Source: Candidatus Cloacimonadota bacterium
GTDB lineage: Bacteria > Cloacimonadota > Cloacimonadia > Cloacimonadales > Cloacimonadaceae
Direction of reading: 5' to 3'
Assembly: GCA_028683635.1 (NCBI GenBank)
Contig: JAQUHL010000001.1
Span: 1-25,351 of the forward strand
Length of the DNA stretch: 25,351 nucleotides
Shown here: positions 1 to 7,085 of the stretch, piece after piece
Layout of the letters: each line of letters begins with the position of its first letter
How positions within the stretch are numbered: position 1 is the stretch's first letter
Made by a program: the position numbers and the translations under genes
Notes under the pieces: generated by a model
What the model was told of the DNA's origin: nothing
Databases searched by the model: none
The model's input: only the letters and a program-made list of their open reading frames with translations

Positions 1-2130
1 CCGCAACCCCTCGGCACCCCCAGCACTTCCGCCACTTGGTGGATCATCTTCGAACGTGGCAGCAATATCAATCCTGCCGCCTCCTATCGCGACCGTCAGG
101 GTCCAGCTTATGACAGTAATTTCCAAGCCCTTGCCCTGCCCGCTGCCACGGCTATTGCAGATCCTTTCAACATCAATATGGTCGTCCCCATCAATCCCAG
201 ACGCTACGTCCTTACCAATAAATACGTGGTGCTCGGATATGACCAGGAAACTGGCGGAACTCTCATCACAGCCACTTCGACGGATCTGAATACTGGTGCC
301 TTTTCACTGAAGGTGGAAAGCGGAACCGTGATCCGCAGGATTGAAGTCCGCTCCCTGGATAATAATCTGATGGAAAGCCTGATAGGAGAATGGGATGGCC
401 AGGGTGGTGATGAATACTATGCAGATGTTACTGGCCTTAGCGGAAGCGCTCTGAGAGCCGGGCTCAAAACCATCACCTCCACGGGACAGATCAACAATAG
501 CTGGGACAACACCCGCTATCATATCTATGCATCTTTGGATAACGTCAATAACACCGTAAGCTGCGTCTATACCGGTGCGGTCTATGATCACCCTGCCGGT
601 GAACAATCCACGCCTGCCGGGCTGAGCGCTGAGCACAGCTATCCCCAGGAATGGTTCTCCGGCCACGCTGAAAGCAGCCTCATGGAAACCGATCTGCACG
701 CCCTCTTCCCTGCTAACCAGGCTGCCAATTCAGCCCGCAGCAATTACCCTTATGACTATGTGACCAACATCAGTTCCACCTGGGGAAGCGGAGATTACTT
801 CTCCTATGGTGGAACCAATTCCGGAGCAGACAATGCTTTCGACGTTGCCGATGAATTCAAAGGTGATGCTGCCCGTGCTATTCTCTATATGGGAATGAGG
901 TATTACGACGACGATCAGAACTTCACCAGGTTCGATGTAAACCTCTTGCCCATCATGCTTGTCTGGCACCAGCTCGATCCCGTTGATGACTATGAAACTG
1001 CCAGAAACACAGGTGTTTACGCCTTCCAGGGAAATCGCAACCCCTTTGTGGATCACCCGGAATGGGTAAACGATATCTGGGGTGATATCGCCATCGATAC
1101 TCCGGTGGCTACCATTCCATCCAACCTGGGAGACCACGGTTTTACGGCCAATTGGAATGCCGTCGCTGCTGCTTCTTCCTATCGCTTTGATCTCTCCACT
1201 TCCCCGATCTTCGCAGGATTCGTCAATGGCTACAAAAACAAGGTCGTGAGTGCCACCAGCCTGGATATTAGCGCTCTCGATCCCTCCACAACCTATTATT
1301 ACAGAATCCGGGCTCTGGGCTCGAATGGCGAACTCAGCCTCAATTCCAATACCATTTATGCCAGCACTACTGCCGGTGGCACCCTGGCTTATTACTGGAA
1401 CTTCAATAGCAATGTCCCCGGTACCGGAGTGAACTGGACACAACCTGTTCCCGCTTCCATCGGGCAAGGAAACATCACCTACAACCTCACCAAAGCAGTC
1501 AGCTTTGGCGGGACCACCTTAAATGGTGAAGCGGGAGAAGTAAGTGGAGGCAGCTTCGTTCCCCAGGGTGGAGATCTCGAATTGGAAAACAACGGCAATT
1601 GGATGGAGCTTGCTCTGCCCACTACCGGCCTGCAAGATCTCATCCTCACCTATGCTGCCCGAAGAACTTCCACGGGATTTAACTCCCATGAGATCTATTA
1701 CAGCTTGGGTGGTACGGATTTCACTCTCTTTACCACCATCACCGATCTGCCCTCCGATTGGCTGGTCTCTGGCGTGAAATCCATCGATTTTTCCAGCCTT
1801 GGCGGTGCAAATAACAATCCGGATTTCAAGATCAGGATTGTCTTCCTTGGTGCCACCACGGTCTCTGGAAACAACCGGATCGACAATATCAAGATCTTTG
1901 CCTCACCCACTGGTGGCGAGCCTCTGGCCTCTCCCCAGAACCTGCAGATCATTAACCAGAACGGCCAGGTCCAGATCTCCTGGGATGCCGTAACTGGTGC
2001 CACGTCCTACAGGATCGAACATGCCGATGATCCCGAGGGAACTTTCAGCACCGCTGACACCACCACAAACCTGAACTGGACGGCTGCCGCTTCCTCAAAG
2101 AAGTTCTACCGGGTAATCGCCATCCAATAG
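1..2130 (+). CDS. Secreted endonuclease I (EndA/Vvn-like His-Me nuclease) with FN3, beta-sandwich and C-terminal 'FYRVIA' domains; 5'-truncated
   Basis: Frame 1 is open from base 1 (PQPLGTPSTSATWW...) into the 178..2130 ORF, so the true start is left of the window. Endonuclease-I motifs are present: SAEHSYPQEW, DLHALFPANQAANSARSNYPY, KGDAARAILYMGMRY, WHQLDPVDDYETARN, QGNRNPFVDHPEW. FN3 is indicated by FTANWNAVAAASSYRFD...YYYRIRA. Confidence 0.88.
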   Translation, partial: PQPLGTPSTSATWWIIFERGSNINPAASYRDRQGPAYDSNFQALALPAATAIADPFNINMVVPINPRRYVLTNKYVVLGYDQETGGTLITATSTDLNTGAFSLKVESGTVIRRIEVRSLDNNLMESLIGEWDGQGGDEYYADVTGLSGSALRAGLKTITSTGQINNSWDNTRYHIYASLDNVNNTVSCVYTGAVYDHPAGEQSTPAGLSAEHSYPQEWFSGHAESSLMETDLHALFPANQAANSARSNYPYDYVTNISSTWGSGDYFSYGGTNSGADNAFDVADEFKGDAARAILYMGMRYYDDDQNFTRFDVNLLPIMLVWHQLDPVDDYETARNTGVYAFQGNRNPFVDHPEWVNDIWGDIAIDTPVATIPSNLGDHGFTANWNAVAAASSYRFDLSTSPIFAGFVNGYKNKVVSATSLDISALDPSTTYYYRIRALGSNGELSLNSNTIYASTTAGGTLAYYWNFNSNVPGTGVNWTQPVPASIGQGNITYNLTKAVSFGGTTLNGEAGEVSGGSFVPQGGDLELENNGNWMELALPTTGLQDLILTYAARRTSTGFNSHEIYYSLGGTDFTLFTTITDLPSDWLVSGVKSIDFSSLGGANNNPDFKIRIVFLGATTVSGNNRIDNIKIFASPTGGEPLASPQNLQIINQNGQVQISWDAVTGATSYRIEHADDPEGTFSTADTTTNLNWTAAASSKKFYRVIAIQ

Positions 2131-2161
2131 TTACAATTCTGGCTCTGCCACTTATATATCC

Positions 2162-2197
2162 GGGAGTCACCTCATAAAGGTGGCTCCCTATTTGTTT
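2162..2197 (+). terminator. Probable intrinsic terminator of the nuclease gene
   Basis: Stem GGGAGTCACCT (2162-2172), loop CATAA, stem AGGTGGCTCCC (2178-2188, one G-U pair), followed by TATTTGTTT. It begins 31 nt after the stop codon. Confidence 0.65.
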
Positions 2198-2623
2198 GCA
2201 TTCGGTCCCGCATGGGCTTGAATGAGAAGACCAAATAGGGGTGGGGACGTCCCCGTCGCCACATACTCCAATTGGGGTGGGGACGTCCCCGTCGCCACAA
2301 AAGGCTGTATGCCTTCCGAACAGGCAGATCCGCTGCCTCTGTCGACCGGGAGCTCGACAGCCCAAATTGGGGTGGGGACGTCCTCGTCGCCACATACTCC
2401 AATTGGGGTGGGGACGTCCTCGTCACCACAAAGGCTATATGCTTTCCGAACAGGTAAACAGCTGCCTCTGTCGACCGGGAGGTCGACAGCCCTAATTGGG
2501 GTGGTGACGTCCTCCTCGCCACAAAAGGCAAATTCTTTTTTTCTACTTCCGTTTACAGGGGCTCTGGCTTCGCCTCGCACCCTGCCTATGATCTGTCGCC
2601 CACCGGGCTTTCCCGTCCCTCCC

Positions 2624-2724
2624 TGCTTGACAGCGTTAATCACTTCTTAATCTAGCCTTAATCAAGCGTTAATAATTAACGCTTGATTAAGGCTAGATTA
2701 AGAAGTGATTAACGCTGTCAAGCA
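2624..2724. repeat. Perfect 101-bp palindrome (50-bp arms, 1-nt centre at 2674)
   Basis: TGCTTGACAGCGTTAATCACTTCTTAATCTAGCCTTAATCAAGCGTTAAT-A-ATTAACGCTTGATTAAGGCTAGATTAAGAAGTGATTAACGCTGTCAAGCA. The arms are exact reverse complements, read off directly. Confidence 0.97.
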
Positions 2725-2739
2725 AGGGTGCTTTGTCCT

Positions 2740-2766
2740 GGATTCCCGATCCGGGTCGGGAATGAC
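2740..2766 (-). repeat. dRS3-like palindromic repeat (GTCATTCCCG...CGGGAATCC class); diverged second copy at 4219-4244
   Basis: GGATTCCCGATCCGGGTCGGGAATGAC has the ATTCCC-Nn-GGGAAT core typical of Neisseria dRS3-like repeats. The second copy is CATCCCCGATCGGGGTCGGGAATGGC. Confidence 0.6.
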
Positions 2767-4295
2767 GGTAATGACGCTTGATTAAGGAAGACCTTTACAC
2801 ATCCCGATTTATCGAAATACAGACTTCCATATATGCTGGTTGTGAGGCTTGTTTTTGTAAATCTAATCCCGCCCTCTTGAGACGAGGTTGAATAGGCATT
2901 GGGATCCGGACAAGGTGTTTGGCATGCAGCAGGAGTGATGTCGCCCCTGACGGGGCTTGGGTGGTGGTTGTGGGGTTGCGCCTGTACAGGGGTTCCGCTT
3001 CGCTCCACGCCCTGCCTATGATATGCCGCCCGTTGGGCTAAGGTATTCCAAACCACTAACCATTCATCGTTCTCAAATACCGTTGCCCATCCCGATTTAT
3101 CGAAATACAGACTTCCAAATATGCTGGTTGTGGGGCATATTTTTGTAAAGCAGTATGCCCATTAGGGGTGGGAACGTCTCGTCAACACAAAGGATATATG
3201 CGTTCCGAACAAGCGACTCCGTTGCCTCTGTCGACCGGAGCTCGATAGCCCAAATTGGGGTGTGGACGTCTCGTCAACACAGAGCCCCTTGCGGGCGCAA
3301 TATCATAGGCAGGGTGTGCAGCGCAGCGGAATCCCTGTGTATGGCCACCTCACAACCACCAATCAAGCCCCTTGCGGGCGCAATATCATAGGCAGGGTGT
3401 GCAGCGCAGCGGAACCCCTGTATAAGGAACCCAAAAACCTCACAGAGAGCCCCGTAGGCGGCGACATAATATTGTGAGACGCTCCATCGAAAGATCGTTA
3501 CACATCCCGATTTATCGAAATACAGACTTCCAAATATGCTGGTTGTGAGGCTTTTTTTGTAAATCTATTCCCGCCCTCTTGAGACGAGGTTGAAAAGGCA
3601 TTGGGATCTGGACAAGGTGTTTGGTATGCAGCAGGAGTGATGTCGCCCCTGACGGGGCTTGGGTGGTGGTTGTGGGGTTGCGCCTGTACAGGGGTTACGC
3701 TTCGCTCCACGCCCTGCCTATGATATGCCGCCCGTTGGGCTAAGGTATTCCAAACCACTAACCATTCACCGTTCTCAAATACCGTTGCACATCCCGATTT
3801 ATCGAAATACAGACTTCCAAATATGCTGATTGTGGGGCATATTTTTGTAAAGCAGTACGCCCATTAGGGGTGGGAACGTCTCGTCAACACAAAGGATATA
3901 TGCGTTCCGAACAAGCGACTCCGTTGCCTCTGTCGACCGGAGCTCGACAGCCCAAATTGGGGTGTGGACGTCCTCGTCGCCACAAAGGGATATTTGCTTT
4001 CTGAACAGGCAGATCCGCTGCTTCTGTCGACCGGGAGGTCGACAGCCCAAAATGGGGTGGTGACGTCCTCGTCGCCACAAAGGGCTAATTCTTTTTTTCT
4101 ACTTCCGTTTACAGGGGCTCTGGCTTCGCCTCGCACCCTGCCTATGATCTGTCGCCAGCTGGGCTCTCCCGTCCATCCCTCTCTGCTTGACAGTGTCAAG
4201 CAAGGTATGAAGAAGTTCCATCCCCGATCGGGGTCGGGAATGGCGGGAGTTGGGGCAACGCTCCACTCATTTATGGGTGGTGGATTAGGCTTGGA

Positions 4296-6998
4296 TCATT
4301 TCATCAGCAGCATTTTACGGTTGCAGGAGAATTCGGCACTTTCCAGGCGGTAATAGTAGATTCCGCTGGCCTGGGATGTGCCCTTTTCATCTGTTCCATC
4401 CCAAGTGAGGGCAAGCGTACTTCTTTGAGGAATGCCACTGAAGAGGGTTTTCACCAATTGGCCTCTGGTGTTGAAAATCCTGAGAGACAGAGGAATGGAG
4501 GGGTTCTTAAGCTCGAAACTGATGGTGGTGCTGGGGTTGAAAGGATTGGGATAATTCTGGTTGAGCCGGTTTTGAAGGGCGGGATTTTGCTCATCGTCAT
4601 TGGACACAAAATTTCCGGTGGTGAACCTGCGGATGGTGGAGAAATTTCCATATCCGGCGGGGTTGATCGCCCGTACTCTCCAGAAATGAGTGGTGTTGGG
4701 ACTTAGGATGGGAACCCTGAACTCCGTGGCAGTAAGATCCTGATAAGTTATGTGGCCGGTATTAAAATAGCTGTCTGTGGCAATCTGTACCTCATAGCTT
4801 TCTGCCAGGGATGAGGCGTTCCATTTCAGCAGAGGGTTCTGGGCCACGTTGGTGGCGTTGTTATTGGGCAAAAGCAAAGACGGCACTGAGGGCAGGACGC
4901 TGATCTGACCCGTAGTGAAGCTGTAATCCCCGGTAAACATGCTATAGCCGATATCGGAGATGGAAGCCACCCTCCAGAAATATTGGGTGAAGGGCATAAG
5001 ATTGGGGCAGGCAAAGCTGGTATCGGGATGGTCGAGCGAATTCACCAGGAAGCTTTCAAATAAAGGATCATCTGAGAGCTGGACCTGGTAAGCAGTAGCG
5101 CCAAAAGCCCTATTCCATCTTAGTACCGGATTGGTGGGAAGGTTAATTGCCTGGTGGGCAGGATAGACCAGCTCGGGTGGATTGACTTCGCTGATGATAA
5201 TGAAGGGCCAGGTGTTTGTGTCACTATGGTTGTTGCTGAGCAGGGTGAGGCGGATAAAGCATTGGCTGGAATCCAGAAAAGGAATGTTGTTCCAGGTGTG
5301 ACTGCCATCATTGGCAGTGGATGCCACCAGAACCATCCAGTTTTGCTGGTTATCGGTGCTGTATTCGATCTTGACGTTTCCGCTGGAGGATTTTGCCTTC
5401 CAGGTAATGGTTTTGTTTGCACCGGTAAACCAGGTTTCACCACCTGTAGGATAGGTGAGTTGGATATCCGAGATTTTGATATCGAAGGTGATGGTATCAC
5501 CGATTAAGCCGATGTTATAAAGATTCAGGCCACCTGAGGCATTATTGCCGAGAAAGCCATTGGGGCTTGTGGTTTCATTTATCATGGTGCGCCCCTGATT
5601 GGCGGAGAAATGTGCCAGGCTGATGATGCCGTTGGTGGTAGTATCCGTGCCATAGGGACGGTATAGATAAAGCTCATCGGGAGGGCCGCTGGCGTTACCT
5701 TCCTCACGGGTATCCAGGCGATAGACGAGGAGGCCGGACCCGGGAAGATTGTGGTCGTATAACCCGGAGCCCTTGCGGTACTCGAGGATGTAAGCTTCCG
5801 TGCTGCGCCAGGAAGGCACCCGGTAGATGTTGTTCGTAGAGCTTGAAGCCACCGGCGAGAGGCTATAGCTGCCGGAAGTAGTGATGCTGGGAACTTCCTG
5901 AATCCACTGTCCATAGCGGTATTTCATCCAGACGCTCATGTGCTGTGGAGGATTGCTGTTGCCGGCCATCAGATCCCAGGCACCAATGGGCGTGATGGTG
6001 TTATCTTCATAACGATAGAGATCCGGTGCTCCCAGGGAATGGAACATTTCATGGGCCAGGACGCTGGCACCAGAGGAAAAAAGAGAGGATTCCAATTGCA
6101 GGTTAAAATCCCAGACCCGGGCACCATGAATATAGGCCTCAGTATAATATAAAACCCAGCGGTGGGGCCAAAGCAATTCAGCCCAGCCATCCGGCTGACC
6201 CTGAACGATAAAACAGACGTTATCCACATTGCCATCATCATCACCATCGATATCCAGATCAGCAGGGATGGCCGTACCAACGGCATTGACGCAATTCATC
6301 AGCATGGTGTGCTCCCGTATGGTTCTTTCCCAATCGTCGTCAGGATTATATCCGATGGGATTGGAAGCGGATATGGGACGGTAATAGTTACGGGGTTGAG
6401 GATCGACATAGGTCATAATCACAGTGCCATCCGGAGCAGGATAAAAGAATGAATCCACAATAAGCTGCTGGTAGGAGGCGTGCCAGAAATAGTTTTTCAT
6501 GGAGTTGTCGCTTAGGCCCGGGGCATTGAACATATTGTCATAGTAGCTGATGGGCGACGAAAAATCCGGATCTCCAGTGAATTTGATAAAGATCACAAGG
6601 TTATTGAACTGACCTGTGTGAGGGGAGCGGCCGTTGCTGTAATCCCGAAGGCTGGGGTCGTGGCTTTCATATTTGGCCTTCAGGGCTTCGCCCCGGATAT
6701 TGATACCCGGTACGAGATTGCGGGAGTGGGGAAGGTCTCTGCCTGCAATTAGAGTACCGGGTTCAATTCTATCTTCTGCCTGAACTGCATACGTGTAATA
6801 TCCGCTCTTGTCATCACGGATGATGGTATAACCTTCCGCATCGTGCAGCCAATTGTGAAATTCATCCCCGGAGGCGAAAATATTGAGCTGGGTTCCATCC
6901 GGTTGAGTAAGGTTGACAGGAGTGTTTTTGAGCGGTGCTGCGATGAGGGCAGAGGCCATCAGCAACAGGATCACGCAGATGTATAATCTTGATGTCAT
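4296..6998 (-). CDS. M6 family (immune inhibitor A-like) metalloprotease with FN3 repeats and C-terminal FlgD-Ig/T9SS-type sorting domain
   Basis: Zinc motif LAHEMFHSLGAPDLY, plus LWPHRW and WDLMAG. N-terminal TQPDGT..GDEFHNW prodomain and two FN3-like domains. CTD LNQNYPNPFNPSTTISFEL...WDGTDEKG...SGIYYYRL...RKMLLMK. The start is moved from 7052 to ATG 6998 (MTSRLYICVILLLMASALIA is a signal peptide, with AAGGA upstream). Confidence 0.9.
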   Translation of the reverse strand: MTSRLYICVILLLMASALIAAPLKNTPVNLTQPDGTQLNIFASGDEFHNWLHDAEGYTIIRDDKSGYYTYAVQAEDRIEPGTLIAGRDLPHSRNLVPGINIRGEALKAKYESHDPSLRDYSNGRSPHTGQFNNLVIFIKFTGDPDFSSPISYYDNMFNAPGLSDNSMKNYFWHASYQQLIVDSFFYPAPDGTVIMTYVDPQPRNYYRPISASNPIGYNPDDDWERTIREHTMLMNCVNAVGTAIPADLDIDGDDDGNVDNVCFIVQGQPDGWAELLWPHRWVLYYTEAYIHGARVWDFNLQLESSLFSSGASVLAHEMFHSLGAPDLYRYEDNTITPIGAWDLMAGNSNPPQHMSVWMKYRYGQWIQEVPSITTSGSYSLSPVASSSTNNIYRVPSWRSTEAYILEYRKGSGLYDHNLPGSGLLVYRLDTREEGNASGPPDELYLYRPYGTDTTTNGIISLAHFSANQGRTMINETTSPNGFLGNNASGGLNLYNIGLIGDTITFDIKISDIQLTYPTGGETWFTGANKTITWKAKSSSGNVKIEYSTDNQQNWMVLVASTANDGSHTWNNIPFLDSSQCFIRLTLLSNNHSDTNTWPFIIISEVNPPELVYPAHQAINLPTNPVLRWNRAFGATAYQVQLSDDPLFESFLVNSLDHPDTSFACPNLMPFTQYFWRVASISDIGYSMFTGDYSFTTGQISVLPSVPSLLLPNNNATNVAQNPLLKWNASSLAESYEVQIATDSYFNTGHITYQDLTATEFRVPILSPNTTHFWRVRAINPAGYGNFSTIRRFTTGNFVSNDDEQNPALQNRLNQNYPNPFNPSTTISFELKNPSIPLSLRIFNTRGQLVKTLFSGIPQRSTLALTWDGTDEKGTSQASGIYYYRLESAEFSCNRKMLLMK

Positions 6999-7085
6999 AA
7001 ACAAAATATCCTTGAACACTCCCGGGAGGGCAGACCTCCTCCGCGAGTGCATGGGCTCCTTTTTTTATTTCAGATTTCCTTTGTC

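Follow-up and report, generated by a model that had tools for sequence, protein, structure and literature searches.

The locus and its surroundings

The window, by which we mean the whole stretch of 25,351 nt analysed here, is contig C240 of a metagenome-assembled genome (MAG) of 2.06 Mb in 343 contigs, which is 74% complete and has a GC content of 47%. A gene at 178–2130 (+) encodes a protein that combines an Endonuclease I domain with fn3, and a gene at 4296–7052 (−) encodes a 918-aa protein with fn3/Ig domains and a C-terminal tail of the FlgD-Ig/T9SS sorting type. Between the two lies a 2.2-kb intergenic region (2130–4296), which contains the palindrome and the following related features.

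2621–2727, no strand: full repeat element of about 107 bp, consisting of an 83-bp core and a 12-nt variable end segment on each side (inverted-repeat pair I1)
2624–2724, no strand: perfect palindrome with 50-nt arms and centre A2674, the second-longest perfect arms among 51 full genomic copies
2633–2715, no strand: conserved 83-bp core, first base G and last base C, 97.7% mean identity over 51 copies
2636–2673, + strand: left array, TTAATC at 2636, 2647, and 2658 plus TTAAT at 2669, exact 11-bp period
2675–2712, − strand: right array, ATTAA at 2675 plus GATTAA at 2685, 2696, and 2707, mirror of the left array
2769–2787, no strand: truncated third arm fragment (inner 14–19 nt), ending where another high-copy repeat (2788–2861) starts (repeat finder D20, I19, D5)
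4183–4203, no strand: core-less version of the element, both end segments joined by a single G (repeat finder D6, D10, D12, D15)

The sequence and the repeat finder agreed on two perfect arms of 50 nt (2624–2673 and 2675–2724) around the single base A2674, as the earlier note on this DNA had described. The inverted-repeat pair I1 reaches slightly further, with arms of 53 nt each (2621–2673 and 2675–2727) and 98% complementarity. That note had also counted four TTAAT motifs per arm at a spacing of exactly 11 bp, which proved correct, and the first three of them read TTAATC. TTGACA is located at 2627–2632 and its mirror TGTCAA at 2716–2721. Folded as single-stranded DNA, a 127-nt stretch reached −61.6 kcal/mol, compared to −10.3 ± 2.6 kcal/mol for 200 shuffled sequences (z = −19.4), and the palindrome is thus far beyond chance. 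In summary, four T(T)nATC boxes at exact 11-bp spacing make up each of the two arrays, which converge on the centre, and short pyrimidine-rich end segments lie outside. The prototype 11-bp unit of the arrays is TTAATCAAGCG, and the innermost full boxes of the opposed arrays span a fixed 33 nt.

At least five further repeat families make up the rest of the intergenic region as a mosaic. Each of them has 50 to more than 99 copies in the genome, and one is a GC-rich, CGTC-containing unit (GGGGTGGGGACGTCC...). Within the mosaic, a direct duplication of 300 bp was found (2852–3151 and 3554–3853, 97%). A repeat of 74 bp (…CCCGATTTATCGAAATACAGACTTCC…), for which the genome gave at least 99 matches, occurs at 2788–2861, 3076–3149, 3491–3564, and 3778–3851, and one of its copies abuts and truncates the palindrome arm fragment at 2769–2787. 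A repeat of approximately 30 bp (CCCCGTTTGATTATGTCATTTCAAAGTGGA) is present in at least 20 copies in the host genome (G000), for example at C2:7072, C10:2363, C22:2426, C37:261, and C333:741.

Copies in the host genome

A BLAST search of the region against the whole MAG yielded 52 loci with a near-identical element of about 107 bp, of which 51 were of full length. The palindrome is not a singular site but a member of this family, and the element itself is real. The mean pairwise identity of the core (window 2633–2715) was 97.7% among the 51 copies, and 36 of these cores are perfect palindromes. The modal perfect arm of the family measures 41–44 nt, and in the alignment of all 52 copies, similarity stops approximately 12–13 nt beyond the core. 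Every (TTAAT-N6)n array in the host genome belongs to the palindrome family, and a search for such arrays returned no solitary arm in this MAG, which is 74% complete. The search for the arm and for (TTAAT-N6)n arrays, which the earlier note had proposed, therefore led to the 52 loci as well as to a phasing that is conserved in relatives (see below). That note had named a copy of ordinary sequence elsewhere, with no conserved phasing in any relative, as an outcome that would count against its reading. The arm is indeed copied elsewhere, but its phasing is conserved in relatives.

A second, non-palindromic family of about six copies was observed in G000 (C94:3133, C113:6171, C149:259, C235:1172, C266:1545, and C329:14185). 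It is laid out as converging arrays of (T/C)ATC boxes with an 11-bp period and units such as TATCAAGCCTA. The centre ATCAAGCGTTAA is common to this second family and to the main palindrome family.

The copies are intergenic. ORFs of at least 120 aa contained none of them, and neither gene ends nor an orientation were favoured, the distances to the 5' and 3' ends of genes being similar. Flanking gene pairs were convergent in 18, divergent in 21, and tandem in 44 cases, approximately the 1:1:2 ratio of random intergenic placement. Among the neighbouring genes, no enrichment of a protein family was detected, and the best one occurred at 6 of about 85 loci. Nor did any transposase gene prove to be linked to the copies. 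The copies of the host genome sit in BIME-like mosaics of other repeat families, and one REP-like unit is followed by the palindrome in 14 of its 21 copies.

Cores, end segments, and core-less sites

Variation within the core was partly paired. At 16 of 36 variant positions, the change is to a complementary pair on both arms. Eight types of both-arm change were distinguished, among them three single-copy changes as well as one copy with three more, and they indicate arm-to-arm homogenisation or selection for pairing.

The end segments of 12–13 nt behaved differently, with 63 haplotypes in 102 ends and mostly two states per position. Their consensus (CC..TTG.. and its mirror) is common to several genera, and at least 90% of the copies from other genomes retain CC/GG at their outer edge. 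Within one copy, the two ends are less complementary to each other than ends taken from different copies (7.4 vs. 8.1 of 13, permutation p of about 0.0006), and an end of the GCTTGA type tends to be partnered with one of the GTTC[CG]A type in the same copy. The centre base, A or T, was uncorrelated with the end type (12 vs. 12 in a hand tally).

Three explanations of the ends were rejected. A target sequence is ruled out because the motif does not occur as a repeat of its own (189 matches vs. 86 expected, of which 64 abut a core) and because the end consensus is common across genera. A copy-specific stem, either of DNA or of RNA with G-U pairs, fails because pairing within copies is lower than between them. 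Lastly, TTGACA does not qualify as a promoter −35 box. The earlier note had pointed out TTGACA at both outer ends, which is right for the window copy; the motif is not conserved, since it occurs at only about 14 of the 102 element ends and lies within the hypervariable segment.

The core-less site at 4183–4203 was the only one of its type found by a pattern search of the host genome. It sits in a paralogous mosaic of flanks, as 2461–2624 matches 4017–4180 at 93%. On contig C237, a copy has retained just the last 10 nt of the core. In our view, both sites are either products of deletion or scars left by excision. A recent burst in which the entire element was simply copied cannot explain copies with invariant cores and diverse ends, nor does it account for the low complementarity between the two ends of a copy. 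Possible explanations are a conversion or replacement limited to the core, or a preferential loss of copies in which the palindrome extends into the ends. The latter fits with the core-less site and the remnant on C237.

Distribution across Cloacimonadota

The core was matched in 13 of 24 relatives from the host family, covering eight genera, and in none of 16 genomes from the other families of the order. In a phylum-wide sample of 200 genomes, the element was present in 49 of 88 genomes of the host family vs. 0 of 112 genomes from 15 other families. Its presence within genera was patchy (e.g., 10 of 20, 14 of 23, and 16 of 19 genomes), and element-positive genomes carried between about one and about 70 copies (1–69 as candidate counts at first look). 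A relative with a single-contig genome of 2,246,820 bp holds about five to six copies, which are spread over 0.53–1.88 Mb. In public genomes, more than 85 loci were found, all titled Cloacimonadota apart from five short-contig loci in three MAGs, one labelled Caldisericota, one Bacteroidales, and one 'uncultured bacterium'. At two loci, L049 (CAZMFK010000223.1, 2984 bp) and L077 (JAGODS010000351.1, 2910 bp), the element is positioned at contig ends in a Caldisericota and a Bacteroidales bin, respectively, and these are probably mis-binned contigs. Taking these data into account, the element is restricted to one family of Cloacimonadota, probably Cloacimonadaceae.

Copies are more similar within genomes (identity of 0.86–0.98) than between genomes (0.77–0.83), and for 100 of 121 copies, the nearest neighbour came from the same genome. 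Phage and plasmid collections contained no sequence match. Two contigs of IMG/VR were matched, one being a Ca. Cloacimonas genome sequence and the other carrying the copy at its contig end, and neither was informative. As we found no published description of the element in the literature searched, the repeat is apparently undescribed so far.

Conservation of boxes and pairing in relatives

The information content was determined for 83 copies from other genomes, which were anchored on the centre. High values were found only at T.ATC, at distances of 11–16, 22–27, and 32–38 from the centre, while the linkers vary. Among 84 aligned copies, of which 83 belong to other genomes, each of the six outer box positions shows ATC/GAT in 93–100%. 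In the left array, this concerns the ATC of boxes 2–4. Box sequence and helical phase are thus conserved independently of the linkers, as is expected for members of a binding array.

Pairing between the arms was considerably less strict. In relatives, a median of 7 of 41 arm positions was mismatched, and the arms were perfect in 5 of 82 gap-free copies. Over 84 sequences and 54 pairs, 80.0% of the cells were paired, compared to 75.2% in shuffles and 25–42% in slid controls, and 25–45% of the cells in linker columns remained unpaired. The covariation of the arms amounted to 0.200 (0.132 when shuffled), a value reached by none of 500 shuffles, and originated mainly from the inner linker. Because the arms covary above the shuffled level, a pairing constraint or an ongoing arm conversion is indicated in relatives as well.

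The genome G023 leads to the same conclusion. Here, the arms are perfect tandem runs of the 11-mer introduced above as the prototype unit, and a major subfamily has a non-palindromic centre while the 33 nt that the innermost full boxes span are kept. From the conservation of the boxes, the G023 centre, and the second non-palindromic family, it follows that the invariant of the whole family is a pair of converging arrays of phased boxes. Judged by sequence conservation, such arrays appear to be the signature of sequence-specific protein binding on approximately one face of the duplex, and perfect palindromy is a local special case. The suggestion of a same-face array for a cooperative DNA-binding protein is supported accordingly by what is conserved across genera, namely boxes phased at 11 bp and not base pairing. 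Neither the neighbourhood nor the co-occurrence analysis delivered a protein candidate for the binding of the boxes.

Mobility and transposase genes

Target-site duplications were searched at offsets of 0–34 and lengths of 2–8, and none was found; the maximum was 10 of 51 copies (2 nt) vs. 5 in the control. The host genome (74% complete) and about 0.7 Mb of related loci contained no autonomous parent with solitary or separated arrays. Hence, neither the terminal inverted repeats with target-site duplication nor the parent insertion sequence with matching ends that characterise a DDE-type MITE was found. We found no insertion polymorphism. When two species of one genus were compared, the flanks of the loci were rearranged or located at contig ends, and no match to an empty version of the C5 locus turned up in metagenomes.

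Two proteins similar to RAYTs (REP-associated tyrosine transposases) are encoded in the host genome. P0002 matches NF047646 at 87.6 bits (cut-off of 80), and P0001, which looks truncated, at 53.8 bits. The two genes are found at C267:3505–4194 (−) and C161:7526–8104 (−), i.e., loci L114 and L113. The gene on C267 is bracketed on both sides by tandem units of about 120 bp with REP-like hairpins. The gene on C161, apparently cut short at its 3' end by a repeat, lies among the GC-rich high-copy repeat families that also fill the window at 2130–4296, with a copy of the palindrome 1.15 kb away. Around the RAYT orthologues of three relatives (G009, G020, and G023), no copy of the element was found within 1.5 kb. 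Hand cross-tabulation showed PF01797 in 34 of 42 element-positive vs. 19 of 26 element-negative genomes of the family. A Y1 gene was absent from eight element-positive genomes, some of which contain about 20 copies. In the complete relative G010, IS200-like Y1 matches at C1:802675–803019 and 682980–683312 each contain an in-frame stop (TAG and TAA, respectively) and are probably decaying copies.

Measured against REPINs, the element is extragenic, high-copy, hairpin-forming, and symmetric within the size range of about 70–110 bp. Two inverted and tagged REP units with conserved ends and a variable spacer were not found, nor was a cognate single-copy RAYT gene that is flanked by the element and inherited together with it.

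Hairpin resolution, assembly, and SbcCD

The host genome, at 74% completeness, contains no match to the ResT/TelK catalytic domain (PF16684), and the copies are internal and dispersed instead of marking replicon ends next to a resolvase gene. With 52 contig-internal copies and another five to six scattered over the single-contig relative, the idea of a hairpin-resolution or protelomerase site had to be abandoned. The same applies to a recent fold-back product or assembly artefact, since the palindrome is the consensus form of the family in dozens of independently assembled genomes, which excludes an artefact at the family level. In Logan short-read contigs of four independent studies, the depth of the arms was 100 to 10,000 times that of the unique flank. 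These contigs break up within the repeats without any of them crossing the palindrome, so the exact arm length of the window copy is taken from the MAG assembly.

For SbcC/SbcD, the incomplete host MAG gave weak partial hits only. A bona fide SbcD above the family cut-off was detected in 3 of 24 genomes of the family (G001–G024), and several genomes of sister families possess one. The absence of SbcD is family-wide and not tied to the element, as the high-copy genome G009 has SbcD. The check for sbcCD and telA/telN homologues that had been advised thus gave SbcD in few family genomes, partial hits in the host, and no trace of a ResT/TelK domain there. The classical nuclease that cleaves palindromes is thus largely missing from the family, and its scarcity may explain why long palindromes are tolerated.

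Interpretation and alternatives

We consider it probable that the element is a lineage-specific, non-coding, and non-autonomous repeat similar to REP, REPIN, or MITE sequences, with two converging arrays of putative protein-binding boxes as its working part. Taken together, variable copy number, patchiness, clustering by genome, and absence from ORFs correspond to what is seen in selfish, mobile, or homogenising DNA of this kind. On roughly one face of the duplex, the phased boxes would offer docking sites to a multimeric protein with sequence specificity, and this putative protein could be a copier or recombiner of the element or an exploited host protein. The perfect palindromy in the host genome would be a by-product rather than the function, with one unit building both arrays, and the host-genome subfamily may have been expanded or homogenised recently. 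Arm-to-arm conversion could keep the arms identical and flip the central base, and the long palindromes presumably persist because most of the family is devoid of SbcCD. Among the three readings offered at the outset, the same-face array is hence retained, while hairpin resolution and the fold-back product are not. Several results speak against our interpretation: the searches returned no trans-acting protein, no autonomous parent, and no insertion polymorphism, the diverse and poorly matching ends do not follow from a simple recent burst, the arms of relatives covary above the shuffled level, and the absence of SbcD is independent of the element. A more specific proposal, which we hold to be unlikely, is that the element is the substrate of an undescribed recombination or copying system, in which a multimeric protein on the arrays swaps or inserts only the 83-bp core into older copies. 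Such a system would explain the invariant cores, the hypervariable and non-matching ends, and the freely flipping centre base. If true, this 'core-homing' repeat, which lacks target-site duplications, would be distinct from DDE-type MITEs and RAYT-driven REPINs.

Other explanations read the same data differently. An ssDNA hairpin of the REPIN type could be moved by a Y1 HUH transposase (RAYT or IS200-like), in which case palindromy and not the boxes would be functional. The two RAYT-like genes, both flanked by REP-like clusters and one close to a palindrome, the absence of target-site duplications that HUH transposition predicts, and the joint changes on both arms, as known from REPINs (PMC3116915), are in line with this. 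However, PF01797 does not co-occur with the element, eight positive genomes do without it, and the RAYT orthologues of three genomes have no copy nearby, so that such a mechanism is possible but not supported. Furthermore, the ends carry no tag of the GTAG/CGTC type, the centre is conserved here and the two ends in REPINs (PMC3116915), and the boxes persist in relatives although most of their arms are imperfect. We therefore rate REPIN-type movement as conceivable but rather unlikely. Immobile host sites, i.e., platforms for a nucleoid-associated, replication, or regulatory protein that spread long ago and were kept by selection at each locus, would account for the strict conservation of box sequence and phase across genera while linkers drift. 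In addition, the opposed arrays with their 11-bp period recall the ParR–parC iterons and the opposed low-affinity DnaA arrays of oriC, and the box T-ATCA is similar to one half, WATCAA, of the consensus for IHF. Nevertheless, copy numbers range from 0 to about 70 among close relatives, nearly half of the family genomes are devoid of the element, two species of one genus do not share the loci (with the flanks rearranged or at contig ends), and gene starts and ends are not favoured. Linkers that are identical within a genome and different between genomes argue for copying rather than per-site selection, which makes host sites of this kind quite doubtful.

At the RNA level, a long transcribed hairpin could act as an RNase III target, mRNA stabiliser, terminator, or small-RNA precursor. 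Points in favour are the high stability of the hairpin, the helical repeat of the A-form, which is 11 bp, and Rfam matches that consist solely of long-hairpin miRNA precursor models. These matches, to the plant miRNA models MIR6288, MIR5635, and MIR476, were rejected, as they stay below the gathering scores and score equally on both strands, which corresponds to the generic signal of a long AT-rich hairpin. With no preference of the copies for an orientation or distance relative to genes, no T-run after the hairpin, and boxes conserved even where the arms are unpaired, a function as RNA is very unlikely. A protelomerase or hairpin-telomere resolution site, or a fold-back artefact of assembly or amplification, could draw on the length and perfection of the window copy and on the failure of the Logan contigs from four studies to span it. 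Given 52 internal copies, hundreds more in independent assemblies including the single-contig genome of 2,246,820 bp, no ResT/TelK domain, and arms at 100- to 10,000-fold flank depth in all four studies, this is improbable in the extreme.

Comparison with known systems

Interspersed palindromic repeats are common in bacteria, and the mechanism is known for few of them. For the repeat family described here, the comparative signal is unusually clean, as helically phased boxes, and not a hairpin, are preserved by selection or copying, while the usual marks of transposition (target-site duplication, parent insertion sequence, RAYT linkage) are absent. The family is therefore a tractable starting point in the search for a new repeat-handling protein, in a phylum that is uncultured and common in anaerobic digesters in large numbers. 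From a practical point of view, the elements and the REP families clustered with them break short-read assemblies of Cloacimonadota, and the element can be used to flag mis-binned contigs and as a strain-typing marker. The persistence of perfect palindromes of 83–101 bp in a family with SbcD in 3 of 24 genomes also provides a natural datum on palindrome tolerance.

Iteron and centromere arrays, such as the 11-bp iterons of parC bound by ParR or the opposed low-affinity DnaA arrays in oriC, consist of short boxes on nearly the same side of the helix, and the box blocks of our element likewise lie at an 11-bp period about a centre. Such arrays are single-copy functional loci beside their cognate genes. 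In contrast, the element is dispersed in about 52 copies, has no adjacent cognate gene, and its box sequence is unrelated. With protelomerase targets (telRL of N15, tos of PY54, and the telomeres of Borrelia and Agrobacterium), it shares the long, perfect or near-perfect palindrome, but it is multicopy and chromosome-internal, the search for a resolvase gene was negative, and relatives have not kept the palindromy.

Like the bacterial MITEs (Correia/NEMIS, RUP, ERIC, Nezha), the element is a small non-coding sequence rich in inverted repeats that occurs in many intergenic copies, some of them nested or truncated in the midst of other repeats. Unlike them, it forms a single palindrome over its whole length, neither a target-site duplication nor a parent insertion sequence sharing its ends was found, and Rfam, phage, and plasmid collections hold no sequence match to it.

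The similarities to REPINs and the REP-RAYT system are more extensive. They include the size of about 100 bp, symmetry, hairpin formation, strictly extragenic location, and tens to hundreds of copies, as well as lineage restriction, largely vertical inheritance, flux in copy number, changes on both arms, and no target-site duplication. BIME-like mosaics with other REP families and RAYT genes in the genome can be added. REPINs have conserved ends, a variable spacer, and joint changes on both arms (Bertels & Rainey 2011, PMC3116915). In our element, by contrast, the centre is conserved and the ends are hypervariable. Moreover, it is AT-rich and derives from an 11-bp tandem unit instead of two GC-rich REP hairpins, carries no GTAG/CGTC tag, and is neither linked to nor co-occurring with RAYT/Y1 genes. 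Altogether, the element is best placed among the bacterial interspersed palindromic repeats, as a new lineage-specific variant with an unusual architecture that combines an origin from tandem 11-mers, a conserved centre, variable ends, and no target-site duplication.
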